A DNA stretch of 49,496 bases from Candidatus Omnitrophota bacterium (GTDB lineage: Bacteria > Omnitrophota > Gorgyraeia > Zapsychrales > Aceulaceae): the NCBI GenBank assembly GCA_029564765.1, contig JAKQPK010000060.1:1-49496 (forward strand), read 5' to 3'. Shown here piece by piece: positions 12,109-31,584 of the stretch. Each line of letters starts with the position of its first letter. The stretch's first letter is position 1. The notes under the pieces were generated by a model. That model saw nothing but the letters and a program-made list of their open reading frames with translations. It was not told where the DNA came from and made no database searches. The position numbers were made by a program, and so were the translations under genes.

Positions 12109-12110
12109 AC

Positions 12111-16779: not shown

Positions 16780-16801
16780 AGTCCGCTCCTTTAAACCCAA
16801 T

Positions 16802-16844: not shown

Positions 16845-16901
16845 ACTGCTATTGGGAGCACGACAGTGATCAGCTGTCCCGCTTTGAAAACTTCTAATTT
16901 A

Positions 16902-16954
16902 ATATTACCGCAAGCACGGCATATAACAAGATGGTCGTTACTACAAAATAGTAA
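16902..16954 (-). promoter_or_regulatory. Putative late promoter with upstream dyad TTACTA-N5-TAGTAA
   Basis: TTGTTA-N16-TAATAT (16929-16902). Perfect 6-bp dyad at 16938-16954, just after the Zn-ribbon gene. Confidence 0.5.
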
Positions 16955-16957
16955 AAA

Positions 16958-17200
16958 TTATTTTTCATCATTTGCCTCCACCGATTTAAAATTTTTTCCG
17001 CATTTGACGCACAGGTGGTACCTGATCGGCGGATGGCTCGAATAGCATTTAACGTCTTTACTCCGGCATCTGGGACAGCGGACAGGAATATAACGCACGC
17101 CGTAATCTTCGCTTTCGATTTTCGGACGGCCGGGAGATCTCCCCGCCTCCGATCCGCCGCAAGGCAGCCAGCCTGATCTTTTCTCGATCCACTTTCCCAT
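16958..17200 (-). CDS. Ogr/Delta-like Zn-ribbon protein (putative late activator)
   Basis: CPRCRS...RYHLCVKCGKNFKSVE; TGATG-coupled to the terminase gene. Confidence 0.7.
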   Translation of the reverse strand: MGKWIEKRSGWLPCGGSEAGRSPGRPKIESEDYGVRYIPVRCPRCRSKDVKCYSSHPPIRYHLCVKCGKNFKSVEANDEK

Positions 17201-19032
17201 CAAAGCCACGCTCCTCCCGGCTTCCTGATCCAGTTCCTCCGGCTGTGGTCTTCTTTCATTTCCGGCTGGTGCGTCTTCATGTTTTCCATGCGCATATTAA
17301 GCGCCCGGATAATGTCTGCCGCGGACAGGGCATATATCTCGGCATCAAGAAAATGATTCGCCGCCGCTTCTTTTTTCTTCTGCCAGATCTCTTTTGCTTT
17401 ACCTGTTGTGCGGTTCCGTATCAGGACCTTATGCTCGGAAGAAACCTGGGCGAGATATTCGTCAGACGGATCGCGGTACAGGTGCCATTTGCACGGATCT
17501 TTAGATGTGACCAGCCGGTTCATCTTGTCTTTGTACTGGTTTACATTGAGATTCCACAGGACAAGACCTCCCGGGATGACCGCTCCTGTCTTCGAGTTGA
17601 TGTCGATCTTGTTTGCCCGGTAAAAACGGCCTCCCGCGATATCTTCAAGACCTTTAACTGCCTTGCTTTTATCTCCCCAGTAACGGCAGAAGCGGTAAAC
17701 CTCGTCCGTCCTGAAACCCGAATCGACGCATGTCATATAAACGGTAAGCCGCTCTTCCGACCCTTCGCGCCGGTACTCGGTCTTAAACAGGGCCTCAATA
17801 ATGTCCTCCCAGTATTCGACCCGCTCGGCCCGGATAAGCCAGGATTCTTCTCCGTACCCCCAGCCGCGGATCACGTAATAAAAATGGTCTTTCTGAACGT
17901 CAACCCCGGCGGTAAGAACCAGAACGCCCTGCGGAACCGTCCCCGGATCGTAATCACGCGCAAGCGACCTGAGCCTGTCAGCCGTGGTTTCCTCGATCTT
18001 CTCTTCCCAGACTTCAGCCAGCCACGAATTGACAAAGTTCATCAGAAGCTCGATATAATCTTTCGACTTCAGAAATTCGCAGGCGATATCGCTCCAGGTA
18101 AGCCAGGGAGAATAAAGAGAACTGATCCAGAATCCGCGGTTTCTTGAAGGTTCCTTCTTCTCTGAAACCCATTCACCTGCCTGCATCATCTTGTGCTTGT
18201 GGGCATCGCCGATCTTTTCTCCGCAGAACCTGCATTCGTACCACGCAAGCCTCCCGGACTTGATCTTTTCCGGAAGAGATTCTTCTTTCGGCCATTTGAT
18301 TTGGCTGAACACAAAGACCTGCTTGCGCCCGCAATGAGGGCATGGCACATAAAACCTGCGCTGGTCTGATTTCTCGTATTCACGGAAAATATACCCCTCG
18401 CGCGTCGTCGGAGTTGAAACCTTCACCGTCTTCCTATTCCAGAAAGTCTTCTGCCGTTCCTGCGCGAGTTTTATCGGATCCGCCTCCCTTCCCGAGAACC
18501 TCGGATACTTGTCGACCTCATCAAGAAAGAGATATCTGATCGGTCTCGATGCCAGGTCCGCAGGGCTGTTCGATCCCGCGAAATAAAGCACCATCCGGTC
18601 GAAATGATATTCAAGCTTTGTAAGATCATCGCTATTCTCCGGCACATATTTAAGCAGCGCCTGCGACGATTCGATCATCGGCCTGACACGGTTGTGGGAA
18701 ACGCTCTTTGCGTCGTCTGACCTCGGCAGCACAAGAAGCGTCGGCCCGGGATCCTGGTCGATAACAAACCCGAGCATATTGAGCATCGCTTCAGTCTTTC
18801 CGACTTGCGACGCAGCCATGATCGTGATCTCTTCCACGGCCGGATCGGTGAAAGCATCCATCACTCCCTGAAGGTACGGCGTCCTTGAAGTTTTCCACTT
18901 CCCAGGCTCCGCCGAACTCACCGGGTTGAGGTGCCTGAACCTGTCAGACCACTGGCTGACCGTTATTCTCTCCGGCCTCTTCCAGGCTTCCCTCTCCCTG
19001 ACCGTCCATATCCGGGACTTGCTCGATATCAT
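17200..19032 (-). CDS. Terminase large subunit, lambda GpA family
   Basis: ASQVGKTE Walker A, LFLDEVD Walker B, STPT, CPHCG, GVDVQ and NHFLDA motifs. Confidence 0.95.
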   Translation of the reverse strand: MISSKSRIWTVREREAWKRPERITVSQWSDRFRHLNPVSSAEPGKWKTSRTPYLQGVMDAFTDPAVEEITIMAASQVGKTEAMLNMLGFVIDQDPGPTLLVLPRSDDAKSVSHNRVRPMIESSQALLKYVPENSDDLTKLEYHFDRMVLYFAGSNSPADLASRPIRYLFLDEVDKYPRFSGREADPIKLAQERQKTFWNRKTVKVSTPTTREGYIFREYEKSDQRRFYVPCPHCGRKQVFVFSQIKWPKEESLPEKIKSGRLAWYECRFCGEKIGDAHKHKMMQAGEWVSEKKEPSRNRGFWISSLYSPWLTWSDIACEFLKSKDYIELLMNFVNSWLAEVWEEKIEETTADRLRSLARDYDPGTVPQGVLVLTAGVDVQKDHFYYVIRGWGYGEESWLIRAERVEYWEDIIEALFKTEYRREGSEERLTVYMTCVDSGFRTDEVYRFCRYWGDKSKAVKGLEDIAGGRFYRANKIDINSKTGAVIPGGLVLWNLNVNQYKDKMNRLVTSKDPCKWHLYRDPSDEYLAQVSSEHKVLIRNRTTGKAKEIWQKKKEAAANHFLDAEIYALSAADIIRALNMRMENMKTHQPEMKEDHSRRNWIRKPGGAWL

Positions 19033-19621
19033 TTATTTCCTCTTTCTTTGTTCCTGCGAATTCGTCAATGATCTCCCCCAGGGCGTCATAAAGGATCGCT
19101 TCGACCTCCCTGGGTTCTTTCATACTTAAAACAGGAGCGAGTTTCGTCGGCAAAACAAGCAAAGACCGCTTCACGATCATGATCCTGGTCACCATACCGC
19201 GCTCAACATCCTCGCTCGATACAAGCTCTCCGAGTTCTTTCCGGTAAGCAAGAAGCTCTTTCTTGTACCTGACCTCGCTCAGTTTTGACTGCCAGACATT
19301 CTTTTCATCCTTCTTTGCCCCGCCTTTTGTAAATTCACGCCAGTTCTCGATCTCAAGCAGGTTATATGTACCTTCCGGCCTCACAGGCATGCCATCCCTG
19401 ACCCAATACTGGACCGTCCTTGTCGATACCCCGAAAACTCGGGCAACCTCCTCTTGCGTAGCCACAACGCCCTCCGGCAGGTTCGCTTCATACCGCTCAA
19501 GCTCGTTAAGCTCTGCCCGGGTGAGCGGTTTATCGTTCTTCAGCTTCTCAAGGAGATAAACCTGCCTCTTCCTCTTCGCGACATCGACAACGCTCAGTTT
19601 TTTGTCTTTCTTCCTTTTCAC
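18944..19621 (-). CDS. Terminase small subunit (Nu1-like HTH plus coiled coil)
   Basis: TQEEVARVFGVSTRTVQYWVRDGMP winged HTH; GELVSSEDV; directly upstream of the large subunit. Confidence 0.85.
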   Translation of the reverse strand: MKRKKDKKLSVVDVAKRKRQVYLLEKLKNDKPLTRAELNELERYEANLPEGVVATQEEVARVFGVSTRTVQYWVRDGMPVRPEGTYNLLEIENWREFTKGGAKKDEKNVWQSKLSEVRYKKELLAYRKELGELVSSEDVERGMVTRIMIVKRSLLVLPTKLAPVLSMKEPREVEAILYDALGEIIDEFAGTKKEEINDIEQVPDMDGQGEGSLEEAGENNGQPVV

Positions 19622-20607
19622 TCCGTGCCTTCCTTCTCAAGGATCTCCCGTTTAATATGCTCCGCCACGGCGCACATGAATTTCGGCATCACCGCATTGC
19701 CGATCTGCGCCCACTGTTCTTTGAATGTTCCGGCGAATTGAAAGTCATCAGGGAATGAAGCAAGGCGTTTCAGTTCCCCGATCGTCAGAAACCTTCTTTC
19801 CTTCCAATGAAGGATCCCCGACATCCCTTCAGCAAATAGCCTTGTGATCGTGCAGAGCGGACGCTTTGGATCAGCTTTGATGAGATTGAAGTAACTGTTG
19901 ATCCCGAACTTCTTTGTCATGAAATGCGCGAGCGACTTTCCCGGCGGAATCGCGTAATAATAATCCCTGGCTTTGCCCTTCGGATAAACGACCTGTTCCG
20001 CGCAGTTAAAACCTTCAAGCGCTTTGCCAACCGAGACAACTCTCCCGCAGCCTTTAGGAAAAGACGGCTCAATATTGAGATCGTTCCTCACGCCGATAAA
20101 AATAAGCCGTTCGCGAGACTGCGCGACGCCGTAATATTTGGCGTTCATCTGCTTGCACTTGACCCGGTAATCGAGGGCCTTGAGGGATTTCAAGATATCG
20201 ATGAACCGCCCCTTCATCTTGCCTTTAACCATCCCCGGCACATTCTCCATAAGAAAAACTTTTGGCTTCAGGCCGTTTATAAGGCGGATATATTCAAGGA
20301 ACAGATCATTCCTTGAATCATTGACCTCCCGCCTGCCTGACATTGAGAACCCCTGGCACGGCGGACTGCCGTCAAAGACATCGAGTTCGCCAGGAACAAG
20401 CCCGCAGAAATTCAAAACCTCTTCAACGGTGACCGTACGGACATCCCTCACCCAGGACGGAACATCGGTGAAATTAAGTTTGAATGTATCCGCAGCGATG
20501 CCGTTCCAATCCACCGCCAGAAGTTCGCGGTACCCGGCAAGTTTATAACCGAGAGAACTTCCTCCGCACCCCGCGAAGACCGATATCACTGTTGGCTTAC
20601 CATTCAT
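19618..20607 (-). CDS. Orphan DNA (cytosine-5) methyltransferase
   Basis: FAGCGG, GSPPCQGFS, ENV, QSRER and IGNAV motifs. Confidence 0.93.
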   Translation of the reverse strand: MNGKPTVISVFAGCGGSSLGYKLAGYRELLAVDWNGIAADTFKLNFTDVPSWVRDVRTVTVEEVLNFCGLVPGELDVFDGSPPCQGFSMSGRREVNDSRNDLFLEYIRLINGLKPKVFLMENVPGMVKGKMKGRFIDILKSLKALDYRVKCKQMNAKYYGVAQSRERLIFIGVRNDLNIEPSFPKGCGRVVSVGKALEGFNCAEQVVYPKGKARDYYYAIPPGKSLAHFMTKKFGINSYFNLIKADPKRPLCTITRLFAEGMSGILHWKERRFLTIGELKRLASFPDDFQFAGTFKEQWAQIGNAVMPKFMCAVAEHIKREILEKEGTE

Positions 20608-21100
20608 AGCCGCACCCCGGACATTTGTGAGCTGTCGGGATCGCCTCATCCAGCTCCTTTTCTCTCAAGCTTTCCTCTATCACAGCCTCACCAGCCTCAT
20701 TGTCTTTCTTGAGTTCCTCGAGTTTTAACCCGATAAAACTTCCGAACCCGGAATCTTCGATCTCCTTGAGAATCTTGGCGAGGCCGTCTGTCCAAGTTCC
20801 CTCGATGCTTTCGTTGTTGAGAGCGACATTCATCGCCTTCTGCCCTTTCTCATCGAGATCGACGATCACAACCGGGATCTCGCCTTTCACACCCAGTTCT
20901 TTTAATGCCTTGTAACGCTGATGCCCTCCCACGATCTGCATGTTCCGCTGATTGACAACGATCAAGCTGACACAGCCAAACTTCTCAAGGCTTGCCTTCA
21001 ACCCGCTGAACGCCTCCTGGGTAATATCCCGGGGATTCCATTCAGAAGGAATGATCTCCTCAAAATTGACCTTCTTTAATTTGATAGGTATCTTTTTCAT
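20597..21100 (-). CDS. ParB/Srx N-terminal domain protein with C-terminal CPxCG
   Basis: WNPR, LKASLEKFG, IVGGHQR and CPGCG motifs. Confidence 0.85.
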   Translation of the reverse strand: MKKIPIKLKKVNFEEIIPSEWNPRDITQEAFSGLKASLEKFGCVSLIVVNQRNMQIVGGHQRYKALKELGVKGEIPVVIVDLDEKGQKAMNVALNNESIEGTWTDGLAKILKEIEDSGFGSFIGLKLEELKKDNEAGEAVIEESLREKELDEAIPTAHKCPGCGYEW

Positions 21101-21606
21101 GTGTTCTCCTTGAACGCCAGACCGCAGCTCGGACAGGTCAGTTCGTCCGTGATCTCCTGTTTCGCCTTCTCGACCTTCTGATCTTCAAGACCGACAGCGA
21201 CAACCCGGTCCCGCAGCTCATCCAGCTTTAAATCCTGATACTGCCCGCCGATCACTTCCTTCAATTCGGCAAGAATGGCATGAATGTTTTTTGACCAATG
21301 CCCCGAGATCCGCTTGTTGTTGAGCGTGACAGCCAGAGCCTTTTCAGCCAGGTCATCAAGATCGACCATAATGACCTCTGCGGTCTCAATTCCCAGAGAT
21401 TTGAGTGCCTCATACCGCTGGCATCCGCCAACGATCCGCATATTGCGCCTGTTCACGACCAGCAGTTCGGCATATCCGAATGATTCGATGCTTGCTTTCA
21501 GCCCTGCCTTTGCCGGATCCCCGATCTTCCGGGGGTTGTACGGCGCCGGAACCACCTCATCAAGCCTGATTTCCCTGATTTCAGGGTCAATATTGACCTT
21601 TTCCAT
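21097..21606 (-). CDS. ParB/Srx N-terminal domain protein with C-terminal CPxCG (paralogue)
   Basis: YNPR, LKASIESFG, IVGGCQR and CPSCG motifs. Confidence 0.85.
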   Translation of the reverse strand: MEKVNIDPEIREIRLDEVVPAPYNPRKIGDPAKAGLKASIESFGYAELLVVNRRNMRIVGGCQRYEALKSLGIETAEVIMVDLDDLAEKALAVTLNNKRISGHWSKNIHAILAELKEVIGGQYQDLKLDELRDRVVAVGLEDQKVEKAKQEITDELTCPSCGLAFKENT

Positions 21607-21660
21607 GTTTTTCCCCTCTTTTTACGAACACGAAATGATTAAAAATTTTTCAAATCACTC

Positions 21661-21710
21661 ACGACCCGCGCCTCGCCCGACCCGCGCCCAACACCCCCCG
21701 GCAAGGACCC
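21661..21710 (-). other. Putative cos site (cosQ-like GGGTCCT plus cosN-like 12-mer)
   Basis: GGGTCCT at 21710-21704, then CGCG-GGTCGGGCGAGG-CGCG (12-mer at 21682-21671); layout resembles lambda cos. Confidence 0.6.
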
Positions 21711-21726
21711 GAGAATGTTTTCGCGG

Positions 21727-21861
21727 TCAAAACGTAACGCATATCGTCAGCACCCCCGCGCTCATCCAGTACACAGCGTGCCGGACATCCCCCTGGTATC
21801 CGTAAACACAGGCAGCTATGAAATCCAGCACGATCAGGGTTATTGGGAATATCTTTTCCAT
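21727..21861 (-). CDS. 44-aa two-helix membrane protein (not in ORF track)
   Basis: MEKIFPITLIVLDFIAACVYGYQGDVRHAVYWMSAGVLTICVTF; TGATG-coupled to the upstream gene. Confidence 0.72.
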   Translation of the reverse strand: MEKIFPITLIVLDFIAACVYGYQGDVRHAVYWMSAGVLTICVTF

Positions 21862-22097
21862 CAGACAATCCTTCCGTTAAAGATGCGTACCGCATCGCCC
21901 ACCTTGCTCCAGTACTCTTTGTCCTCATCAGAGAACTCCGCCCACATAGCATCCATGGGTTCGACAACCGTCCTCTGAAAGACATCCTTGTCCTTATCGA
22001 TATTGACGCCCTTGGCCATCATGTAGTTGTTCCAGTTCGTCCCATCGACAAAACGCTTGTATATTGCTTTGAACTTCCTGAACTGCTCATCCGTCAT
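21861..22097 (-). CDS. Hypothetical phage protein
   Basis: 78-aa ORF, co-oriented and coupled to the next gene. Confidence 0.65.
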   Translation of the reverse strand: MTDEQFRKFKAIYKRFVDGTNWNNYMMAKGVNIDKDKDVFQRTVVEPMDAMWAEFSDEDKEYWSKVGDAVRIFNGRIV

Positions 22098-22109
22098 AAT
22101 TGCCTTCCA

Positions 22110-22293
22110 GTAGAAGAGAAAGAGTTGTTTTGTATTTACGCTTATATCTATTTCTTTTTTTCTTTTTTACTTATGTATATAGGAGAAAAAGTTTCTCTTC
22201 TTTCTCTACCCCTGCGCTAACCCTTTGTAATTTCAATAACTTCTGCGGTTGAAACACTGCAAAACAAGTTCAACCGATGCTCTACTTCTCTAC
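22110..22293. other. Putative replication origin
   Basis: AT-rich core flanked by inverted GTAGA/GAGAA-type purine repeats (22110-22124, 22195-22209, 22280-22293), immediately after the primase-helicase gene. Confidence 0.4.
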
Positions 22294-24386
22294 TAATAAG
22301 GCCGCTCCATAAAGTCATCCTGCGTTTCTCCGCCCTTCAACCCGATTCCGAACCAGAAAATGTTCCCTTTGCCCTCGCCCGCTGAAAGCATGTCCTTCGT
22401 AAAACCGCGCTTTTTCATGTAATCGATGAACTCGTTGCGTTTGACATAACGCAAGCCGTTATCTTTTGCCCACTGCTGAATGTCTTTAAGAATGAGGCTT
22501 GCCTGCGCTTTTAGATCGGTCCCCAGGACACAACGCTCTTCAATATAGTTGCCGATCAAATCGGACTCTTCCTGGTACTCGTTCGTTGCGGCAATGACCT
22601 TTTCCGGCCTGCCCAGACCGTCCTTTTGCCACATCCTGAAACCTTCAACGGCCCAGGCAAGAATGCCCTCGTATTCGGCCGCCAGCTTTTCGTCCAGCTT
22701 CGGGTCGCGCTCTTTGGGAGCGACAACCTTATCGAACGGAATGGTCACAATGCGCCGCCAGATCCCTTTATCTGTCCCTGAAATATTCGGTTTGTGGTTC
22801 GTTGCCAGAAAGATCTTGAACGTCGCGAAGAAATCGAAATATTCCCGGTGCAGAAATCGCGCGGAGATCGGGTCATCGCCTGTAAGCTGCTTGATCTGCG
22901 CTTCAGCAAGCGCCCTTGATTTACCGGATTCAAGCGACGTGACAAGCCTTGTCCCTTTGAGCCTTGCAATATCATTGGGTATGGAATCGTTATACTTCTC
23001 CATCAATGTGGATGACGGCGTGTTGATCGCGTAATCGCCGAGGATCTTGAAGACGTGTTTAAGGAACGTCGATTTGCCGTTCATCCCGACGCCGTAAAGG
23101 ATAAAAATGCACTGCTCTTTTATCGATCCCGAGAGCGAATATCCCACGGCTTTCTGCATGAACTCGACCAGCTGGGTATCTCCCAAGAATATCGACATCA
23201 AAAATCGCCGCCACTCCGGGCAGTCAGTCTCTTTCCTGTAATCGAACTCGACCCGGCGCGTGATCATGTCATCTTTGCTGTGGGGTCTTAGCTCTCCGGT
23301 CTCGAGGTTGAGCGTTCCGTTCATGCAGTTGAGCAGAAATATATCCCTGTCAAAATCTTCATTCTTGGCTGAAACGCCTTCGCTCCTGACCAGATTGATC
23401 ATCGCTTTGAGCCGCGCTTCCGATTCGCTCTTGACCGCATGCTTGAAAAGAAACTTGTCATTGCTGGCCTGCGCCATCTGGTACATCTGCTTGACGGTAT
23501 TCTTCGCGAGCTTTAGGATCCTGAACCTGTCATCCCTTTCCCATCTTGTGCCGTCCCAGATAAACCACCCGCCCAGGGCATCGCAGTATTTAATGTCCGC
23601 GCCGCATTTCTCAAAGAACAGGTTCGCGCTCCAGACATCCGTCAGCGGATCTTTCGCCTTATCGCCCGCGTTGTACCGCGACACGCTTTTCGCTATCGTT
23701 GAGACTTCTTTCTTCGGCAGGGGAGGAACGCACCGGGTATCATTGATGGCCTGAAGCGTGATATCGATCTGCGGATAGTCGAGGCCCATCTTGCGCAGCT
23801 TCACGCCCATGTGCATGAGCGTATCGTTGCGGTTCTCTTTGATCTTTGCCCCGCTGTCTGACAGGTCAACAACGGTCTTCTTTTCACTGAACAGGTCGAG
23901 CAGCCATTCCGGGGCATCGGCGACCATCGTCTCATCAGGATGGTGAGCCGCTTCCCATTCGTAGGAACGGCCGTCAATGGAACTGGGCGGACCGATAACG
24001 TACCCGCCGTCACCCCTCAAATCTATGCCCGGCCTCAACCCTGTTTTGCAGCCGACGCCTTCCGGAGGATAGCGGAAATAAATATGCCTTCCGCCGCTCG
24101 GCGTGAGAGCTTCGATTGTATGGGGCATCTCCCCGAATTCTTTTTCCAGGTCTTTGAGCGATTCATCCCCGCAAGCGCCGTTCTTGACGTCTATATCGAC
24201 AACGAAGATCCCGGAAACTTTCCCGGTCGCGATCCCGATATTCGAATGGTTCTCCGCGAACATCTTTCTGATGGCCGCTTCGTCATGCGACGCGTCCTTG
24301 AATCCGTGCTGCGTTAAAGGGATCTTCTTGTTGCATGGAAATACCGCCCAGCCTCTCCTGGCATAAATGATTGCCTGATCAAGCAT
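22293..24386 (-). CDS. Bifunctional primase-polymerase / PriCT / D5 / P4-type SF3 helicase
   Basis: NIGIATG, VVDID, TPSGGRHIYF, RGDGGYV, RNDTL, YGVGMNGKST and GIWRR motifs. Confidence 0.93.
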   Translation of the reverse strand: MLDQAIIYARRGWAVFPCNKKIPLTQHGFKDASHDEAAIRKMFAENHSNIGIATGKVSGIFVVDIDVKNGACGDESLKDLEKEFGEMPHTIEALTPSGGRHIYFRYPPEGVGCKTGLRPGIDLRGDGGYVIGPPSSIDGRSYEWEAAHHPDETMVADAPEWLLDLFSEKKTVVDLSDSGAKIKENRNDTLMHMGVKLRKMGLDYPQIDITLQAINDTRCVPPLPKKEVSTIAKSVSRYNAGDKAKDPLTDVWSANLFFEKCGADIKYCDALGGWFIWDGTRWERDDRFRILKLAKNTVKQMYQMAQASNDKFLFKHAVKSESEARLKAMINLVRSEGVSAKNEDFDRDIFLLNCMNGTLNLETGELRPHSKDDMITRRVEFDYRKETDCPEWRRFLMSIFLGDTQLVEFMQKAVGYSLSGSIKEQCIFILYGVGMNGKSTFLKHVFKILGDYAINTPSSTLMEKYNDSIPNDIARLKGTRLVTSLESGKSRALAEAQIKQLTGDDPISARFLHREYFDFFATFKIFLATNHKPNISGTDKGIWRRIVTIPFDKVVAPKERDPKLDEKLAAEYEGILAWAVEGFRMWQKDGLGRPEKVIAATNEYQEESDLIGNYIEERCVLGTDLKAQASLILKDIQQWAKDNGLRYVKRNEFIDYMKKRGFTKDMLSAGEGKGNIFWFGIGLKGGETQDDFMERPY

Positions 24387-24443
24387 GTACCGACCTCAAT
24401 ATGTAGAAAGGGGGACGGCAAAACGCCGCCCCCCTTATGATCT

Positions 24444-25172
24444 TTAATACGGTCTCTTTTCCCTTGAGTCATCCTGCGCATCCTCCTCGTGGACCTGGAT
24501 CGCATCCACCTTCGATGCGAAATCCTTCCAGAGCCGCTCGCCGACCGCGTACTCTTCAGGCTTCGCATCGCCTGCTGGCGTGACCTTTAACACCGCGTAA
24601 GTCGCGATGTCGTTGGTCTCCATCTGCGAGACAAGTTTGTACCTGCGGGAGAACATATCCCCGCCGCAGAACTTTGCGAGGGACAGAAGGTTCTTCCCTG
24701 CCCGGTAACTTGTCTTTGAGAAACTCACGATGATCGGCATGGGAACGCCCGGAAAGTAAGAAAAGAAGTTGATGAAGGTCGTCGCCAGCGGCTTTTCGCC
24801 ATTGGGGCCGAACCTCGCCTCTTCCTTGACCTTCGGGTCCAGCGGATCGGTTGACTTCCAGATGACCGCCCCGGGATCGAAATCGGGGTTGAAATTCGGA
24901 TCGTCCTTGCTCCGCGGATTGAAACGGATATAATTCTTGAACGTAAAGACCGGGATAAAATCTCCGGGCAGAACTTCTTTGGTAAGGGAGTTGATGATCG
25001 ACCCCACCTTGATGCCTTCCAACCCCTCGGTCAGCTCGGGCGAAAGCGCCTGGATCAGCTTCGCGCGCGGAATGATCAGGTCTTCCCGATCAACCCCGCC
25101 TTCAAAACCTCTCTGAACGCCCTCCGCCTGCATTAACGCGCCGCTTTGAACTTTTTCGATTTCCTGTGACAT
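24444..25172 (-). CDS. Conserved phage replication-module protein, possibly ssDNA-binding
   Basis: DLIIPRAKLIQALSPE motif, acidic C-terminal tail, position before the primase. Confidence 0.55.
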   Translation of the reverse strand: MSQEIEKVQSGALMQAEGVQRGFEGGVDREDLIIPRAKLIQALSPELTEGLEGIKVGSIINSLTKEVLPGDFIPVFTFKNYIRFNPRSKDDPNFNPDFDPGAVIWKSTDPLDPKVKEEARFGPNGEKPLATTFINFFSYFPGVPMPIIVSFSKTSYRAGKNLLSLAKFCGGDMFSRRYKLVSQMETNDIATYAVLKVTPAGDAKPEEYAVGERLWKDFASKVDAIQVHEEDAQDDSREKRPY

Positions 25173-25184
25173 AGCCTGCCTCCT

Positions 25185-25586
25185 TTATGAATAGAGCCTG
25201 ATTGACGGTTTAAGGTAATAACTGACGAACTCCGGGACTTCCGCTCCGGTCTCTATGCACTCGCTCGTGAAACTCGAGAGGCTCTGGGGCAGGACCGTTG
25301 TCTTGATAAGATCCTCTCTGCCCTGTTCCTTCAAAAATTCGAACAGGCGCTCCATATTTTCCTCTTTGCAGCTTGCATAGAGTCTCGGCTTCTGGATCTG
25401 CGCGTAACCGATGCCCTCATACTTGGCAGTAGCTACCGCAGAATTCGATTCCATGAACTCAATTAAAGCGAACTCGGTCTTTTCGTATTCCTCCTGCGCC
25501 AGCTTCAGCGATTCCTTGATAGCGTCCCGCTTTTCTTTGGCGCATTTGAACTGCAAGACCAAAGTCCTTTCTGCAGCTTTTTCCAT
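25185..25586 (-). CDS. Coiled-coil phage protein of the replication module
   Basis: AGGAGG SD; helical N-terminal half. Confidence 0.7.
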   Translation of the reverse strand: MEKAAERTLVLQFKCAKEKRDAIKESLKLAQEEYEKTEFALIEFMESNSAVATAKYEGIGYAQIQKPRLYASCKEENMERLFEFLKEQGREDLIKTTVLPQSLSSFTSECIETGAEVPEFVSYYLKPSIRLYS

Positions 25587-25598
25587 CGAACTCCTCCT

Positions 25599-25745
25599 TT
25601 ATTCGGTAAAGTCTTTTTCCGTAATCTTCATGCTGTTGTAGCCGTTGCCTTTGACAGGCACGACGACATAATGCACGCCGCTTTCATCCAGAACGATCTG
25701 GGTGATCTTGACTGGCACTGTGATCTTGTCTCCGATCTTCAACAT
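25599..25745 (-). CDS. 48-aa hypothetical protein
   Basis: MLKIGDKITVPVKITQI... with an AAGGAGGT SD. Confidence 0.65.
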   Translation of the reverse strand: MLKIGDKITVPVKITQIVLDESGVHYVVVPVKGNGYNSMKITEKDFTE

Positions 25746-26046
25746 TGTTCCCACCTCCTTCCCGGGTAATAAAGTTTCTGACTTCTTCAACGCTTCGGCA
25801 GACCTTGACTCTTCCACCTGCCTTTCGAATTTCTCGCATGACGTATTCCTGAATGGGAGTAGCCTTGTTAGAATTGACTTTAAGCTCGACCGCATAGAAC
25901 ATTCCCTCCTTGCAGATGATCAGATCCGGTATCCCGGCGGTGAACCTGTCAGCGCTTTTATAGAACCACGCCGACGGCAGCTCGCGCCGCAGATAATCAA
26001 TGACCTGATTTTTTAGTTTTGTTTCTGACAATCGCGTAAACCGCAT
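25684..26046 (-). CDS. VRR-NUC nuclease
   Basis: SETKL...GIPDL...AVELK...TPIQ PD-(D/E)xK pattern. Confidence 0.85.
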   Translation of the reverse strand: MRFTRLSETKLKNQVIDYLRRELPSAWFYKSADRFTAGIPDLIICKEGMFYAVELKVNSNKATPIQEYVMREIRKAGGRVKVCRSVEEVRNFITREGGGNNVEDRRQDHSASQDHPDRSG

Positions 26047-27418
26047 CCTGCAACCCCTGCTTCTTCTGAAGCACTTTCACAAGTTCCTCATCGATCGTTT
26101 CCCTGGCGACCATATAGATATAAAGACAGCTGTTTCTCTGGCCGATCCTGTGGATCCGGTCCCGCGCCTGGGCGTGCGCTTCATAGGAATAATCGAGGCT
26201 GTAAAAGACCATCGTCTTGCAGCTGACGAATGTCAGGCCGTGGGCCGCTGACCGAGGATGCGCTATGAGATACCTGACGGATCCGCTCTTGAACCTGTTG
26301 ATCGATTCGTCCCGGTCTTTCGTGCCTGAATAAAGCGTCGTGACCTGGTCCGCTCCGTACTTTTCCGAGATCATCTTTTCGATGACTCGGACTTCTTCGT
26401 GGAACTGCACCCAGATGATCACCTGCTGGCTTCCCAGTTCTTCCAGAATCTCCTCAAGCTCCTTGAGCTTTGACGGCCTGTCGATCGACACCGCTTCGCC
26501 GCTTTCTGAATAAAAGAACCCGGATGTCGCCTGACGCAGCTTCATTAATTTGGCGAGGACAACCTGCGCCGCGATCTCATGCCCTTCGATCTCCGTGATC
26601 AGGAAATCCCTCATCTCCTCATATGCCGTCCATTCTTTGGCGCTGAGTTCAACCTCTCGCACCTCGTCGATCTTCTCGGGCAGGTCCAGCGCCTCGCTCT
26701 TCTTCACCCAGTGCGTCACCGGGCTTACCTCTTCCATGAGCCTCCTGCGGTTCTCGGCCGTTATCGTGTACTTCCACCCCTGGCTCAAGATCTCCCGCAT
26801 CTCGTGCTTGCTCACGAACTGCCCGTTCAAATACTTCCGCTCGCCGTACCGCTCAAGATGAAAATAGGAGTTTCGGAAGGCATAGAAGGACTTGTGCAGA
26901 AGATACGGGCTGACAAACCTGATCTGCCCCCACAGCTCTGCCTCGCTGTTAGGCATCGGAGTGCCGGAAGCGATAATCCTGTACCTGAAGTATTCAGTCA
27001 GTTCCAGGAGCGTCTTTGTGGTCACGCTCTTGTTGTTCTTGAGGCGCGAACTTTCATCAAGGACGCACATGAACGAATTGCCAAACACATGACTCATGAC
27101 TTTCGGAAGATACTTCTTTGATATGAGCGCCTCGTAATTGACGATGATGATGTCCGGCTTCTCGTTCTTGATCTGCTTGAGAGGCATGGACGAAAACTCG
27201 GTGAACTTGCGGATATCCTCGCCCCATGCTGAATTGACCAGGGACAGAGGACAAACGACAAGGAGCCTCAAGCCCGGATTGACCTGTCTGTACCTCTTAA
27301 ATATTTCGAGGCATGTCCTTGTCTTCCCCAGGCCGGGATCGTGGAAAAGGGCGCAGCATCCGTTATTCCTGACCGCGATCTCGACCGCATCACTCTGGTG
27401 TTTAAACAGACTTTGCAT
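25997..27418 (-). CDS. SNF2-family helicase
   Basis: PGLGKT, LDES, SGTP and QARDRIHRIGQ motifs. Confidence 0.92.
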   Translation of the reverse strand: MQSLFKHQSDAVEIAVRNNGCCALFHDPGLGKTRTCLEIFKRYRQVNPGLRLLVVCPLSLVNSAWGEDIRKFTEFSSMPLKQIKNEKPDIIIVNYEALISKKYLPKVMSHVFGNSFMCVLDESSRLKNNKSVTTKTLLELTEYFRYRIIASGTPMPNSEAELWGQIRFVSPYLLHKSFYAFRNSYFHLERYGERKYLNGQFVSKHEMREILSQGWKYTITAENRRRLMEEVSPVTHWVKKSEALDLPEKIDEVREVELSAKEWTAYEEMRDFLITEIEGHEIAAQVVLAKLMKLRQATSGFFYSESGEAVSIDRPSKLKELEEILEELGSQQVIIWVQFHEEVRVIEKMISEKYGADQVTTLYSGTKDRDESINRFKSGSVRYLIAHPRSAAHGLTFVSCKTMVFYSLDYSYEAHAQARDRIHRIGQRNSCLYIYMVARETIDEELVKVLQKKQGLQDAVYAIVRNKTKKSGH

Positions 27419-27518
27419 TTTTCCTCTTTCCGCACGGCCTGTTTGCCTGGACCAGCTTCTGGCGGTTGTACCAGCTCAAATTTTTGTAGATCTCCTTGAG
27501 ACCCTTCTGGACTTTCAC
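27402..27518 (-). CDS. 38-aa basic peptide (not in ORF track)
   Basis: GTG start overlapping the upstream TGA, AAGGAG SD; MKVQKGLKEIYKNLSWYNRQKLVQANRPCGKRKNAKSV. Confidence 0.5.
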   Translation of the reverse strand: MKVQKGLKEIYKNLSWYNRQKLVQANRPCGKRKNAKSV

Positions 27519-27790
27519 GGCTTCGGCTCCTTCTTGACGCGTTCTACGCTGAAATTCCGTTCGCCGATGAACTTGATCATCAGCCCTGTGAAGACTTCAG
27601 CGATGTGCTCGCCAACCGGCCCCGAAACGTCGATCGCGACCTTGTCATCCGCTGCCAGATATGCGGCGTTAAGCCTGACTTTGGCCGCTCCGAAGGTGCA
27701 TTCAGCCGAAAGGACCGCGAAGGCGATCTGCTCTTCGATGAACTCCCGGCTGACCTGCTTTTTGAATATGAACTTGCAAACTTCTGACAT
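27515..27790 (-). CDS. Hypothetical early protein, first gene after the repeat motif
   Basis: 91 aa, AGGAG SD, directly downstream of the 36-bp repeat. Confidence 0.75.
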   Translation of the reverse strand: MSEVCKFIFKKQVSREFIEEQIAFAVLSAECTFGAAKVRLNAAYLAADDKVAIDVSGPVGEHIAEVFTGLMIKFIGERNFSVERVKKEPKP

Positions 27791-27806
27791 CGCTTTTCTC
27801 CTCTGT

Positions 27807-27842
27807 GGCGTACATACAGGAAATTCTTCAAAAGTGTCGCGA
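27807..27842 (-). promoter_or_regulatory. 36-bp direct repeat copy 1 (putative phage-sigma promoter)
   Basis: TCGCGACACTTTTGAAGAATTTCCTGTATGTACGCC, identical to 28770-28805. Confidence 0.7.
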
Positions 27843-27849
27843 ACTATTT

Positions 27850-28428
27850 TTAGAAATATTCATTCAGCTTTTTCTTCTGAAAAACCTCTTTGATGCGCTC
27901 GATTTCTCTATAAACATTCGAACGGTGAAGGCTTAAGACCTCACCAGCTTCAGGAACGCTCAACCCTTCATCCTTTAAAAGCCGACAGAGCTCCCTCTGT
28001 CTTGGAGTCAAACTTTTAATTGTGTTGGAAATATCAATCGAAAGTTCTGCGTGGACACGCAGATCAATGGCATGGTTCTGATCGTCAGCAAGAATGTCTA
28101 ATAAGGAAGAGGCATCTTCCTCATCTGATAATGGCTGGTTAAGAGAAATTGATTCAAAAGCGACTTTGCGTTTATCTGTTAAAAGACTTTCGATAATGTT
28201 TCGTAAATTGCGCTTAAGAACCCTGGACATATAAGTCTGTTTTGAAGCGCCCGCAGCAGGGTCGTAACCATCTTTTACGGAAGACCAAAACAACAAACTC
28301 TCTTGAAGCAAATCATCGAAATCTTCGCGAGCCAAGCACTTCCAGTTCCTCTTATGCTCATCAACAATATTCTTTGCGACACCGACTTCCCAATCCTCGA
28401 ACAACCCCCTGTAACTTGATCTCTTCAT
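27850..28428 (-). CDS. Phage-encoded sigma-70-family (ECF-like) sigma factor
   Basis: Region 2-like DFDDLLQE...YDP...TYMSRV; SISLNQPL; region 4 LTPRQRELCRLL..EGLSVPEAGEVL HTH. Confidence 0.85.
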   Translation of the reverse strand: MKRSSYRGLFEDWEVGVAKNIVDEHKRNWKCLAREDFDDLLQESLLFWSSVKDGYDPAAGASKQTYMSRVLKRNLRNIIESLLTDKRKVAFESISLNQPLSDEEDASSLLDILADDQNHAIDLRVHAELSIDISNTIKSLTPRQRELCRLLKDEGLSVPEAGEVLSLHRSNVYREIERIKEVFQKKKLNEYF

Positions 28429-28429
28429 A

Positions 28430-28462
28430 AGACACCTCGCCTTTCTTTTTTTTGAGGTGTCT
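28430..28462 (-). promoter_or_regulatory. Hairpin sequestering the sigma-gene SD
   Basis: AGACACCTC-N15-GAGGTGTCT-T-ATG, a perfect 9-bp inverted repeat. Confidence 0.6.
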
Positions 28463-28529
28463 CAAATGGGGGGATAAATAAAGGATAGGGCTTTTGAGGC
28501 CCTTACAAAATCACGGAGGAATCCGTGAT

Positions 28530-28754
28530 TTAAGTTTTCCGACGAGGCGCAACCTTGGAGATGTCAACTGCCCCGCTGAATTCCTCTTCTGTCGGCTCTC
28601 TTCCGAGAATCCCGGTCAGGACCTGGAAAACCGCTTTTGAGATGGCTTCGTAGTGAATGGCTCTCTCTGTTGCGGACACTGGCTTGTCCGGGTACACGGC
28701 TGTGAACCTGTCCCCGAATTTTTCCTGAACGTTTTGAGCGATCTTTTTTCCCAT
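28530..28754 (-). CDS. 74-aa hypothetical protein in the cro-like position
   Basis: AGGGAG SD; first leftward gene; no HTH evident. Confidence 0.65.
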   Translation of the reverse strand: MGKKIAQNVQEKFGDRFTAVYPDKPVSATERAIHYEAISKAVFQVLTGILGREPTEEEFSGAVDISKVAPRRKT

Positions 28755-28769
28755 GCCTTAACTCCCTGG

Positions 28770-28834
28770 GGCGTACATACAGGAAATTCTTCAAAAGTGT
28801 CGCGACATAAATTAAAAAAATCCTGTATATACGC
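28770..28834. promoter_or_regulatory. Symmetric element: repeat copy 2 plus an inverted copy sharing palindrome TGTCGCGACA
   Basis: TCGCGACA-N13-TCCTGTAT[GA]TACGC reads on both strands from the centre at 28802/28803. Confidence 0.72.
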
Positions 28835-28870
28835 AGCAGAGGGCGCCTGCCCAAAGAGAGCAAAAAATAG

Positions 28871-28900
28871 GTGTCATTTATGGGCAAAAAAGGATATAAT
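28871..28900 (+). promoter_or_regulatory. Sigma70-type promoter for a probably leaderless HTH-integrase transcript
   Basis: GTGTCA-N18-TATAAT; the -10 box ends 6 nt before ATG 28907. Confidence 0.55.
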
Positions 28901-28906
28901 TTAACT

Positions 28907-29296
28907 ATGAAAAACAAAGACGCCCGGTCGCTTCCGCCGGACAAACAGGAAGACATCAGAAAGAAAGCGGTTCACGCGGTTTTAAAAGACGGCAAGACCC
29001 GGGCCGAAACCGCGAAGGCTTTCGGCGTGAGCCGCCAGAGGGTTGAACTGTGGGTCAAAGAATACAGGAAAGGCGGAATGACCGCCTTGCGCTCCGGCAA
29101 ACGCGGTCGTCCGGCAGGAGGCGCACTCTCCCCTGCCCAGTCAGCCAAGATCACAGCGATCCTGAAAGACACACCCGGCCCGGTAACAAGGAAAGCCGCT
29201 GCTGAGCTAATTAAACATGAACTGAATATCGAGGTTTCGGTATGGACCGCCGGAAGGTATCTGGCGCGGTGGGGATTAAAGAGGAGGAAAACATGA
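28907..29296 (+). CDS. Stand-alone IS630-transposase-like HTH/winged-HTH protein (no DDE domain)
   Basis: DARSL..DKQEDIRKKAV, ETAKAFGVSRQRVELWVKEYRKGG..AL...KRGRP, TRKAAAELI, SVWTAGRYLARWGL; ATGA-coupled to the integrase. Confidence 0.82.
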   Translation: MKNKDARSLPPDKQEDIRKKAVHAVLKDGKTRAETAKAFGVSRQRVELWVKEYRKGGMTALRSGKRGRPAGGALSPAQSAKITAILKDTPGPVTRKAAAELIKHELNIEVSVWTAGRYLARWGLKRRKT

Positions 29297-31047
29297 TATT
29301 TGCCACAAAGACAGACAAGAAGAAACGCTGCATCATTTACACAAGATGCTCAACCGATGACCAGGCGCAGGGCGATTACACCACCCTAGACGCCCAGGCC
29401 CATCACTGCAAGAACATGATCGACGCCTTCGGGTACGAAATGGCGGACTTTGGCGAGAAAGGCGTGGTCAACGATGACGGATACTCGGGCAAAGACCTGA
29501 ACCGCCCCGGCATCCAGTCTATCCTTAAAGACATCCAGACCAAGAAGTCCTTTGACGCGATCGTCTTCTTCCGCCTTGACCGCCTCACAAGAAACCCCCG
29601 AGACCTTTACGGCATGATCGACCTGTTCAAAGCCAACGAGATCGACTTCCTTTCTGTCCGCGAGAATCTGGACAGCTCGACCGCCATCGGCCGCGTGGTT
29701 ATCGGGATCATCGGGCTTTTGTCCGCCTTTGAACGAGAGCTGACAGGCGAACGCGTCAAAGCATCCGCCATCGCCAGAGCCAGACAGGGCCGCTGGGTCG
29801 CAGGAAAACCACCGTTCGGATACAAACAGATCCCTGACGGCAATCCCCTGCCGAACGGCCGACAGCCCCACAAGGTCGTCCTTGATGAGAAGATCGCTCC
29901 CTTCATCAAGCGGATCTTTGAACTGGCCGCGGACAACAAGACCCTGACCGATATCGGCCAGGACATGATCAGCAACAATGTCCCGACATCAAAGAACTTC
30001 ATCTGGCGCAAACAGACAGTCGCCAAGATCATCAAGAATCCGTTCTACAAAGGAAAGGTCCACTATTCCGGCGAAACGCACAATGGCGCCCACCAGGCGG
30101 TCGTTGATGAAGAACTCTGGGACCGGGCAAACAAGATCGTCTCCGCAAACCTCCCGGGCCACAGGTTCATGCCTATCTCAAAGGATTACGCCAGCAAGCT
30201 GAAAGGGATCCTGAAATGCGGACACTGCGGAAGCAGTTTTGTCTCCACCCTCGCCCACAGCCACAACGGAAAGACCTTCTATTATTACGAATGCAGCCGG
30301 GGCAGGCAGAGACTCGGATGCGACACCCGAAGGATGTCAGCGACAGGGTTTGACCAAGCGGTCCTCGACTTCTTCTCCCGGGCATCAAAGGATAAAGAGA
30401 TCATTGCCAGCACCATGACAGACGCCGTCAATCACAGCAAGAAGCAGCTCACCGCCTACAACAAAGAGACCAAAGACCTGCAGAAGAAACTGGTCAAAGC
30501 CAAAGAAGCAGCCGAAAGACTTCTGAACCTTGCGATTGATAAGGTGATCACAAAAGGCACGACTTACGCGAAAAAGATGGGTGCGATCGAAACAGAGATC
30601 GCTTCACTGGAAGACAGGATGTCGAAGATTGAGGCTAAACGGAGAATCGCGGACATGTCGGCCAATTCGACCGAGTACCTGCACTCGAACATGCGTTTTG
30701 CGATGGAACGCATGGCAGACAGCCCGCCAGAGGCTCAGATCGCCCTTTTAAAGTCACTGCTCAAGGCGATCGACTTGCACGATGACCATGTGATCATGCG
30801 TTTTTATCTCGGAGATCCCTCTGGGGAGATCTCCTGTCCCATTGAAGCGCATCAAGAGCGAACCCTGCCCGGTTCTCCCGAACAGGGTTCGCCTGTGCGT
30901 CAACAATGGCGGAGAGGTCGGGATTTGAACCCGAGGTCCCGTTACCAGGACAACTGCTTAGCAGGCAGCTGCGTTCGGCCACTCCGCCACCTCTCCAAAC
31001 CTCTAAATAATCAAACCATTCACAGAGCAAGGAGAGAGTTGTGTTAA
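29293..31047 (+). CDS. Large serine recombinase (integrase), 584 aa
   Basis: YTRCST catalytic Ser, SGKDLNRPG, RLDRLTRN, PPFGY, Zn ribbon CGHCG...YYEC...C and a coiled coil; GAGGAGG SD before ATG 29293. Confidence 0.95.
   Translation: MIFATKTDKKKRCIIYTRCSTDDQAQGDYTTLDAQAHHCKNMIDAFGYEMADFGEKGVVNDDGYSGKDLNRPGIQSILKDIQTKKSFDAIVFFRLDRLTRNPRDLYGMIDLFKANEIDFLSVRENLDSSTAIGRVVIGIIGLLSAFERELTGERVKASAIARARQGRWVAGKPPFGYKQIPDGNPLPNGRQPHKVVLDEKIAPFIKRIFELAADNKTLTDIGQDMISNNVPTSKNFIWRKQTVAKIIKNPFYKGKVHYSGETHNGAHQAVVDEELWDRANKIVSANLPGHRFMPISKDYASKLKGILKCGHCGSSFVSTLAHSHNGKTFYYYECSRGRQRLGCDTRRMSATGFDQAVLDFFSRASKDKEIIASTMTDAVNHSKKQLTAYNKETKDLQKKLVKAKEAAERLLNLAIDKVITKGTTYAKKMGAIETEIASLEDRMSKIEAKRRIADMSANSTEYLHSNMRFAMERMADSPPEAQIALLKSLLKAIDLHDDHVIMRFYLGDPSGEISCPIEAHQERTLPGSPEQGSPVRQQWRRGRDLNPRSRYQDNCLAGSCVRPLRHLSKPLNNQTIHRARRELC
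30907..30996 (-). tRNA. tRNA-Ser(GCT), CCA encoded; likely integration target
   Basis: GGAGAGG/CCTCTCC acceptor stem, CT-GCT-AA anticodon loop, long variable arm, TTCAAAT T-loop. Confidence 0.95.
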
Positions 31048-31080
31048 CCCTCGCCTTGTAGCCTAAAAACACTCAGACGA

Positions 31081-31584
31081 TCAATTGAACTTTGCTTGAT
31101 CGATACGTTTCCGCTTAAAGAAATCGCTTATGAGCGCCCCGCACTCTTGCGCAAGGATCCCCTCAACAACATTCATCCGGTGATTGAGCGCCGTATGATT
31201 AGCGATATTCAAGCATGATCCACAAGCACCCGCCTTAGGATCCTTGGCCCCAAAATAAAGCGTTTTGATCCGTGCCAAAACCAAAGCTCCAGCGCACATG
31301 CTACAGGGCTCGATTGTAACATAGAGCTTGCAATCATTCAACCATTTGGATGATAGGGTGTTGGCGGCTTGCGTGATCGCAACGATCTCCGCATGAGCTG
31401 TTGGGTCTTTGAGCACTTCTACCTGATTGTGCGCACGCGCGACAATGCGATTCTGATGGACCACGACTGCCCCAATAGGAACTTCATCCGCATCGAAAGC
31501 AATCTTTGCTTGACGCAAAGCTTCGCGCATGAAATATTCATCATTATGTGTGAGCAATGCGGCTGGGGTCTTTATGTCATCCAT
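31081..31584 (-). CDS. tadA: tRNA adenosine(34) deaminase
   Basis: EVPIGAV, AHAE, TIEPCSMC and DPKAGACGS motifs. Confidence 0.95.
   Translation of the reverse strand: MDDIKTPAALLTHNDEYFMREALRQAKIAFDADEVPIGAVVVHQNRIVARAHNQVEVLKDPTAHAEIVAITQAANTLSSKWLNDCKLYVTIEPCSMCAGALVLARIKTLYFGAKDPKAGACGSCLNIANHTALNHRMNVVEGILAQECGALISDFFKRKRIDQAKFN

Follow-up and report, generated by a model that had tools for sequence, protein, structure and literature searches.

A Divergent Control Region Centered on a Phage Sigma Factor

How is the choice between lysis and lysogeny made in a prophage whose divergent control region holds a sigma-factor gene and no recognizable repressor of the cI/Cro kind? This question is raised by a siphovirus-like prophage of a Candidatus Omnitrophota bacterium, which occupies bases 1 to ~30,900 of the stretch of DNA analyzed here. 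The stretch (hereafter, the window) is 49,496 nucleotides (nt) long and is the whole of contig JAKQPK010000060.1 (C64) in the 76-contig, 1,864,461-base (1.86-Mb) assembly GCA_029564765.1; its guanine–cytosine content is ~52% in the prophage vs. ~44% in the host DNA alongside. An earlier note, made by reading the sequence alone, had described the control region as a switch in which the phage sigma factor recognizes a repeated motif. Our analysis leads us to favor, with moderate confidence, a private-sigma switch, in which three promoters would be read by the phage factor (sigma-phi), a self-activating sigma gene would be restrained in cis, and all lytic genes would be co-induced together with the integrase.

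The minus strand carries every phage gene from 28754 leftwards, and only the genes for a helix-turn-helix (HTH) protein and a large serine recombinase (the integrase, Int) run rightward. Family searches agreed with the identities that had been proposed for the sigma factor, the IS630-like HTH protein, the integrase, and the 74- and 91-amino acid (aa) proteins (p74 and p91). The control region thus contains the following features:

27515-27790, minus strand: p91, 91-aa protein; first gene after promoter P91 and a partner of sigma by gene neighborhood
27803-27843, minus strand: P91, sigma-type promoter; -35 GCGACA at 27835-27840, -10 TATGTA at 27811-27816; heads the p91 gene and the lytic strand
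27850-28428, minus strand: sigma-phi, phage sigma-70-family factor of 192 aa with domains 2 and 4
28530-28754, minus strand: p74, 74-aa helical protein, strictly linked to this integrase family
28766-28806, minus strand: P74, sigma-type promoter; -35 at 28798-28803, -10 at 28774-28779; heads p74 and, putatively by read-through, sigma
28799-28839, plus strand: Pint, sigma-type promoter, back to back with P74 and facing the HTH and integrase genes
28871/28880-29296, plus strand: IS630-type N-terminal HTH protein of 138-141 aa; its stop overlaps the integrase start (ATGA)
29242/29293-31047, plus strand: large serine recombinase; its open reading frame (ORF) runs antisense through a tRNA-Ser gene

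The motif is present as a direct repeat (27803-27856 and 28766-28819) with an identical core of 36 nt (27807-27842 = 28770-28805), while a 41-nt palindrome, 73% complementary (28766-28806 / 28799-28839), yields an inverted partial copy that faces the HTH and integrase genes. The 14-mer TCCTGTATRTACGC occurs at exactly three sites in the window, 27808-27821 (minus), 28771-28784 (minus), and 28821-28834 (plus), and the same three sites were the only ones in the whole 1,864,461-base assembly when one substitution was allowed. With up to three mismatches, the window has 12 matches vs. 3.7 expected, and none of 100 shuffles reached 12. The repeat and 14-mer searches confirmed the identical direct repeat before the p74 and p91 genes and the inverted copy reported in the earlier note, and the copies lie where they were said to be, i.e., positioned to drive sigma (via p74), the replication and lytic genes, and the integrase. 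From 5' to 3' on its own strand, every copy consists of GCGACA, 18 nt, and TAT(G/A)TA, with the five bases before the -10 (TCCTG) also in common. The -35 boxes of P74 and Pint, being back to back, make the palindrome GTCGCGAC.

The Layout Is Shared by Related Prophages

We gathered 85 loci by searches with the sigma protein and its alignment (L002 and L076 being the same contig), mostly from Candidatus Omnitrophota assemblies or prophages; 75 of them, the window counted, matched sigma at E ≤ 1e-20. A survey of related prophages, which had been proposed as a check, recovered the same layout in 56 loci, where a serine integrase (at least 45% identical) diverges from a p74 homologue that is followed by sigma. 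The shared order thus runs from the integrase on one side to p74, a structured leader, sigma, a promoter, p91, and the lytic genes on the other, with p91 after sigma in 62 of the 71 loci that had enough downstream sequence. Using a fixed promoter pattern (8 nt, CA, 18 nt, [TA]AT[AG][TC][AG]), copies before p74, before p91, and inverted facing int were found in 42 of the 56 loci (33 unique).

Across the three promoters of these 33 unique phages, the sequence reads xxGACA-18-[TA]AT[AG][TC]A, and none has the host TTG or final T. The three copies of any one phage are alike at 7 nt of the -35 and ~12 nt of the extended -10 but not in the spacer, where T predominates in P74 and P91 and A in Pint. 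When phages are compared, GACA and TA..A are constant; variation is found in the 2-3 bases that precede GACA, in the five that precede the -10, and in the center of the -10 itself. Constant and variable positions of this kind are the mark of a promoter in two parts whose specificity is not the same in every phage. A relaxed search for the two parts gave exactly three copies each in the window plus the left end of its prophage (see below) and in two complete relatives, G001 and G002.

G001, the complete genome of Candidatus Velamenicoccus archaeovorus LiM, has two such prophages, at 1883907-1884473 and 1932136-1932705 (L099); both belong to the -35 class GTGACA, and their extended -10 elements differ (CCCGATATACAC vs. 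ATCTGTATACAT). Elsewhere, the sigma match ends after about residue 128 in L037 (where the ORF is truncated) and L080, and the gene of L077 has an in-frame stop and an insertion; some loci with broken sigma genes may be decaying prophages.

Promoter Specificity Tracks the Sigma Allele

Sigma-phi is a two-domain member of the sigma-70 superfamily by its match to TIGR02937 (48.4 bits, cut-off 42.9, residues 34-186); it also matched PHROG 1740 (3.9e-14) and, just below the 25.7-bit cut-off, PF08281 (25.5 bits). Pfam Sigma70_r2 was not reported for the window protein; many of its homologues bear precomputed PF04542 and PF08281 annotations, and solved SigA chains can be aligned with the family profile in region 2 and regions 3.2-4 (E = 2.8e-8).

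To relate promoters to proteins, we compared distances between promoters at the ten specificity positions with distances between proteins. The Mantel correlation was highest for sigma (r = 0.77), followed by p91 (0.63), p74 (0.60), and Int (0.41). When the other three proteins were controlled for, the partial r was 0.53 for sigma and -0.04 to 0.00 for p74, p91, and Int. For P74 and Pint alone, which are set apart from sigma by p74 and the leader, the partial r of sigma was 0.61.

The same association can be followed in single loci. Over 8 kb (p74, p91, HTH, Int, and the SNF2 helicase), L004 and the window are 92-100% identical save in two patches, the first covering the sigma ORF and the upstream half of P91 (28411-27812), where the sigma protein is only 65% identical, and the second covering the center of the divergent promoter (28850-28762). 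Between the patches, the p74 gene and the leader are 88-98% identical per 50-nt block. L004 has GTAACA, not GCGACA, at all three -35 boxes, and G for T two bases before the -10 in all three. L054 and L056 form the converse pair: sigma is 86% identical and its neighbors 55-58%, and the promoters are identical at the ten specificity positions. Moreover, the class of the region-4.2 recognition helix matches the class of the -35 box in all 32 full-length sequences, which fall into at least seven classes overall:

Helix HRSN(V/I)YR with -35 GCGACA: 5 sequences, including the window
Helix HRM(I/V)(I/V)YRE with -35 GTGACA: 11 sequences
Helix PR(S/G)T(L/V)Y with -35 CCGACA: 12 sequences
Singletons: 4, with a separate helix in each

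On a tree of the N-terminal 128 residues of sigma, which left out L037 with its truncated ORF, no fewer than three changes are required for the GCGACA class, even when well-supported branches alone are considered; the same helix and box therefore recur on different sigma backgrounds. We regard the anatomy of the promoters, their conservation, and their covariation with sigma as established at the level of sequence comparison. Since promoter specificity tracks the sigma allele, moves with it in the swap pair, and matches the helix classes, the claim that sigma acts at the motif, on which the earlier note had built its model, is well supported: by strong, if indirect, comparative evidence, sigma-phi almost certainly reads all three motif promoters.

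Could the motif instead be a host sigma-70 promoter joined to a repressor operator, with the phage sigma acting at other, later promoters? Sigma factors devoted to late genes are frequent among phages, GACA and TAT..A agree in part with the host hexamers, and the back-to-back -35 boxes are palindromic. However, host promoters, as recognized by eye upstream of 11 of 47 tRNA genes, read TTGACA-17-TAnnnT, and the motif, without TTG at the -35 or T at the last -10 position and with a spacer of 18 nt, departs from them in all three promoters of all 33 unique phages. The positions that do vary go with the allele of sigma and with its region-4.2 helix. As for an operator, P91 has no palindromic partner. 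Nor was any further candidate sigma-type motif found in the three prophages (that of the window, with its left end, and those of G001 and G002). We consider this explanation very improbable. On the lytic strand of 11000-30900, the search returned no sigma-type promoter beyond the known copies, and a scan of the same 20 kb with the host-type consensus placed only one of its nine matches, a weak one, on the lytic strand, in keeping with the private-sigma switch.

The Integrase Side of the Switch

The HTH protein matched NF033545 over positions 1-115 of 299 with 69.4 bits (cut-off 100) and has no DDE catalytic domain. The earlier note had made it part of the apparatus that holds the switch off, and it might even be proposed as the lysogeny repressor, binding the motif and holding the three promoters off, as it has the classical position of a repressor, transcribed away from the lytic genes. 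A possible start at 28907 also has, immediately before it, the best host-type promoter match of the region:

28871-28900, plus strand: GTGTCA-18-TATAAT, 10/12, in front of the HTH gene

Speculatively, this match would give a leaderless HTH mRNA from the ATG at 28907. Yet the HTH gene is limited to the window and L004, two of the 56 loci that share layout and motif arrangement, the HTH protein of L004 is 98% identical although its -35 boxes differ, and the ATGA overlap couples translation of the HTH to that of the integrase. In the other loci, the slot between Pint and int is empty (43 loci, gap 152-248 nt) or holds an unrelated basic protein of 105-129 aa (11 loci). The HTH is therefore a lineage-specific insert rather than a core part of the switch; the hold-off role proposed for it is not supported, and we think it highly unlikely to be the repressor. 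The slot seems to collect small DNA-binding proteins that are co-expressed with the integrase. The basic protein (in L010, L013-L015, L018, L022, L041, L071, and L073-L075) contains ELMLLAKERGIKNFRVINKEEL and looks Rho-N/HeH-like by eye.

A strongly conserved element of ~45 nt was noticed in the 5' untranslated region of the integrase in L005 (4489-4600) and ~40 other loci. On the int strand, it consists of TTGATATAGCTTGACTTGT, 8-10 nt, and TTGTTATAGGGGTGTTGT, and its 15-nt gap from TTGACT to TATAGG is unfit for a standard promoter; it is missing in the window, which has the HTH gene there instead.

The integrase itself has, in order, the Resolvase (PF00239, 1.6e-30), Recombinase (PF07508, 1.2e-17), and zinc-ribbon (PF13408, 9.5e-12) domains. 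Its ORF runs antisense through the tRNA gene that marks the right end of the prophage:

30907-30996, minus strand: tRNA-Ser(GCT)

The last ~45 integrase residues are read from the sequence of this gene, and the C-terminus of the protein may differ between the integrated and excised forms. This recalls integration-dependent systems, of which that of mycobacteriophage BPs is said to be one (PMC4557955).

Neither p74 nor p91 matched a family in Pfam, PHROGs, or NCBIfam. Where 2300 nt or more were available upstream of sigma (56 loci), p74 and this integrase were found together in 43 cases, both were missing in 13, and one without the other was never seen. Such strict co-occurrence favors an integrase-linked role, such as that of a recombination directionality factor (RDF), over an anti-sigma role; of the two functions that had been offered for p74, RDF is thus our best guess, and anti-sigma is the less favored.

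Residues ~45-66 of p74 hold LGREPTEEEF, near the GREPTPKE turn of region 3 in the host RpoD. As a relative of sigma region 3, p74 found sigma factors in the top Foldseek rows, yet all with E of at least 1.4; against region 3 of the host RpoD, hhalign gave a probability of 31% over 13 columns (GREPT..E) and BLASTP an E of 0.012 over 17 residues; 0 of 27 members of the p74 family matched Sigma70_r3 at E ≤ 1; and a profile search against solved structures listed no sigma. p74 could at most be weakly proposed as a stand-alone fragment resembling sigma region 3. The predicted model of p91 is confident, with a ferredoxin-like fold (best Foldseek E 4.5e-3; best VIA Z 8.1, to a designed protein); being generic and without a specific match, this fold did not point to a function. 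In the ESM Atlas, p74 gave nothing usable and p91 only unnamed phage clusters. A complex prediction for sigma with p91 scored 0.00, which is neither support for nor evidence against binding.

A Structured Leader Precedes Sigma

Between p74 and sigma lies a leader with a predicted folding energy of -38 kcal/mol (z = -4.9 vs. shuffles), in which a palindrome with a T-run, a second small hairpin, and a hairpin over the ribosome-binding site follow one another; the hairpins that had been noticed between these genes were thereby confirmed. Its main features are as follows:

28510-28529, minus strand: palindrome ATCACGGA-TTCC-TCCGTGAT, then a T-run; candidate terminator-like hairpin and/or operator made of CTCCGTGA units
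28482-28510, minus strand: candidate weak host-type promoter for sigma; TTTTGT 28510-28505, 17 nt, TATCCT 28487-28482
28429-28463, minus strand: hairpin GAGACACCTC...GAGGTGTCT, whose 3' arm spans the Shine-Dalgarno sequence to the start codon; predicted to occlude the ribosome-binding site of sigma

Across 24 aligned leaders, the hairpin over the ribosome-binding site has nine predicted pairs, two of them with compensatory changes, and the prediction of a conserved structure at this site backs the idea that RNA structure restrains sigma. A search of 27300-29400 against Rfam gave no match near any gathering score.

The CTCCGTGA unit is kept upstream of sigma even where a hairpin is impossible, i.e., as two to four tandem direct copies in loci without p74 (for instance, two to four tandem direct copies of CCTCCGTGA(T) stand before sigma in L021, L025, L027, L032, and L039, which have neither p74 nor Int). 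Its conservation without the potential to form a hairpin suggests that the units are a binding site, instead of or besides a terminator. The last unit is immediately followed by TTTAC(T/C), which is replaced by TTTTGT in the window. Of 32 unique leaders, 28 then have TAnnnT after a spacer of exactly 17 nt, with no case at spacings of 12-16 or 18-22. This element is plausibly a weak host-type promoter that would supply the first sigma.

Search for a Repressor

The earlier note had allowed that a conventional repressor encoded at the left end of the prophage, which it could not see, might control these promoters. We located this end on contig C9 (bases 1 to ~5500), where three radical-SAM genes, an Lcl_C-domain gene, and small ORFs are followed by host DNA with a TetR gene and IS200, and found no Pfam-detectable repressor there. 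Family searches likewise gave no match to XRE, S24, or any other repressor family among the ORFs of the window, the left end on C9, and the complete prophages of G001 and G002. The description of the switch as cI/Cro-less thus holds to the extent that no ORF scanned belongs to the XRE or S24 families; absence is unproven, as family searches alone bear on it and many small ORFs have no assigned family. In the private-sigma switch, a dedicated repressor would be absent.

A different reading places sigma-phi downstream of an unrecognized trans-acting repressor (a small phage ORF, p91, or a host factor), which would control sigma at CTCCGTGA and the leader promoter, so that sigma-phi would be an activator only and the system not repressor-free. 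Several observations agree with it: CTCCGTGA units are conserved upstream of sigma, as a palindrome in the window and as tandem copies in the p74-less loci; they abut the -35 of the candidate host-type promoter; and among the unassigned small ORFs, some at the far end are conserved and another lies on the opposite strand. SigN of pBS32 works in this way with the host LexA as repressor (PMC6751061). However, no known repressor family was detected in the window, the left end on C9, or the two complete relatives. Nor does the CTCCGTGA palindrome have a convincing second copy in the host genome that would point to a regulon, and its half-sites number 126 vs. ~110 expected by chance. As for LexA, the host encodes lexA, but the palindrome of the host lexA promoter (a candidate LexA box) is absent from the prophage at up to five mismatches. 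We see the trans-repressor as a genuine possibility, though a doubtful one.

Remaining Genes of the Prophage

Leftward from the control region, p74, sigma, and p91 are followed by an SNF2 helicase, a VRR-NUC protein, proteins like gp33 and gp34 of Pam3, and a primase/D5 protein; farther left lie two ParB-like proteins, a methyltransferase, and then the terminase, portal, capsid, and tail genes. All of these are on the strand read from P91:

3-27418, minus strand: replication, packaging, head, and tail genes

Inside the late operon, where the terminase region gives way to the portal region, 16803-16844 forms a hairpin with an 18-pair stem between A- and T-runs, resembling a bidirectional terminator. 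On the plus strand, against the direction of the late genes, an ORF without a family match at 2038-2373 overlaps two small ORFs of the minus strand; G002 has a counterpart of 113 aa in the corresponding position (69% protein identity), and the ORF could be a gene expressed in the lysogen. The three consecutive radical-SAM/SPASM genes and the Lcl_C-domain gene of the left end (L095, G000:C9, 1-5500) recur in G001 (1857781-1861242) and G002 (627145-630597). This far-end module is 84-91% conserved between the phage of the window and that of G002; for a siphovirus, cargo or a modification module of this kind is unusual.

A Model for the Private-Sigma Switch

In the private-sigma switch that we favor, domain 4 of sigma-phi would read the phage-specific -35 box (GCGACA here) and domain 2 the extended -10 (CCTGTATRTAC), 18 nt downstream. 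Without sigma-phi, the prophage would be largely silent, because its promoters lack the host determinants (TTG, the last T, and the 17-nt spacer) and would be poor ones for the host sigma. Synthesis of sigma-phi would be held low in cis by the terminator-like palindrome and the hairpin over the ribosome-binding site, and the first sigma-phi would probably come from the weak host-type promoter in the leader, flanked by CTCCGTGA repeats that resemble an operator for a further factor. P74 would drive p74 and, by read-through of the leader, sigma-phi itself, which makes positive feedback plausible; P91 would drive p91 and the whole lytic strand; and Pint would drive the HTH and integrase genes. 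Once past a threshold, sigma-phi would lock on, co-inducing the integrase, p74 (the likely directionality factor), and the replication and virion genes. The host-type start promoter, the operator, and the role of p74 are all putative parts of this scheme.

Several points weigh against the scheme. First, related sequences share ancestry, so that the covariation statistics overstate their independence, and the L004 swap is a single event. Second, the path to sigma is not straightforward: read-through from P74 must cross a terminator-like hairpin with a T-run, and the candidate leader promoter is weak in the window (-35 TTTTGT) and was missed by the consensus scan. In the 13 sigma loci without p74 and Int, moreover, sigma-type promoters were returned by the pattern search behind sigma and, upstream of it, facing away, with none directed into sigma; autoregulation may therefore be confined to the p74-containing layout. 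Third, lytic transcription would have to pass the strong terminator-like hairpin at 16803-16844, and the scheme does not account for the establishment of lysogeny, with Int and the lytic genes under the same sigma. Fourth, contigs from RNA libraries (four runs) blanket 11500-31400 at low depth, but such contigs show no start, strand, or level, one of the runs may be DNA, and they are uninformative on promoters. Finally, a repressor could be encoded by one of the many small ORFs to which no family is assigned.

The idea may be taken one step further, to lysogeny that needs no dedicated repressor at all: every phage promoter would be orthogonal to the host sigma, the self-activating, cis-restrained sigma gene would be the sole decision point, and the domain 4/-35 pairs would play the role that immunity groups have in repressor-based phages, guarding a resident prophage against cross-activation by superinfecting relatives. 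We offer this version tentatively and think it rather unlikely.

Comparison with Known Systems

In the classical CI/Cro switch of lambda, as here, a divergent control region separates the integration/lysogeny side from the lytic side and contains several related cis sites, and both are comparable as tRNA-integrated siphovirus prophages. The present system differs in that family searches found no XRE/S24 repressor or Cro in the control region, the window, the C9 end, or the two relatives, and in that its sites have promoter geometry and covary with sigma, so that control would be by activation, not repression. Extracytoplasmic function (ECF, group 4) sigmas are known for autoregulated operons and orthogonal promoter specificities, with AAC-type -35 and CGT-type -10 elements, and PBSX has the sigma-like Xpf. 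Sigma-phi is like the ECF factors in its two domains (2 and 4), its probable autoregulation, and a specificity diversified through domain 4/-35 pairing, but its promoters are GACA-18-TATRYA rather than AAC/CGT, no co-transcribed membrane anti-sigma was recognized (the downstream p91 has no family match and a generic ferredoxin-like fold), and its gene is phage-encoded and lies downstream of a small gene and a structured leader.

The nearest system found is SigN (ZpdN) of pBS32, a plasmid/cryptic prophage of Bacillus subtilis. Its gene is served by a SigA promoter under LexA repression, by a weak constitutive promoter, and by a promoter dependent on SigN itself, which provides positive feedback, and the SigN regulon lies on pBS32 (PMC6751061). 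The two systems are alike in several respects: an element-encoded sigma-70-family factor activates its own gene (here by presumed read-through) and a regulon confined to the element that includes replication-type genes, a separate host-sigma promoter does the priming (here only a candidate), and no cI-type repressor is encoded by the element (here, as far as the family searches go). They differ in that SigN is primed from a strong LexA-repressed SigA promoter, whereas no LexA-like box was found here, and in that SigN promoters largely avoid prophage structural genes, whereas here one promoter heads the lytic strand and another drives the integrase. The structured leader, the diversified sigma/promoter specificities, and the different host phylum set the present system further apart; the likeness to SigN was judged by description. 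In Staphylococcus aureus, the host sigma-H is reported to act at a conserved element upstream of a prophage int gene (PMC2869324), which is likewise an alternative sigma before an integrase, but a host factor that does not control lytic genes or itself from the phage.

Within a literature search whose coverage excluded subscription journals and supplements, we found no account of this prophage family, of Velamenicoccus prophages, or of a sigma-centered switch or prophage regulation in Omnitrophota. The impression of the earlier note that this was not a described architecture was accordingly right in that no equivalent emerged, and too broad in that a sigma with feedback had already been described for SigN of pBS32 (PMC6751061). 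An element-encoded, self-activating sigma switch is thus already known; what is new here is the integrase and the whole lytic strand under sigma, the leader, and the diversified specificities.

The related prophages supply a natural series of matched sigma/promoter pairs in which helix residues map one-to-one to -35 bases, making recognition by domain 4 directly testable, and such pairs could serve as orthogonal expression parts. Candidatus Velamenicoccus archaeovorus LiM, with its two prophages of this type, is a possible host for start-site mapping and induction if a culture is available. If the model is true, lysis–lysogeny control across a family of Omnitrophota prophages would be exerted by private-sigma activation rather than CI-like repression, in a phylum with almost no experimental genetics.

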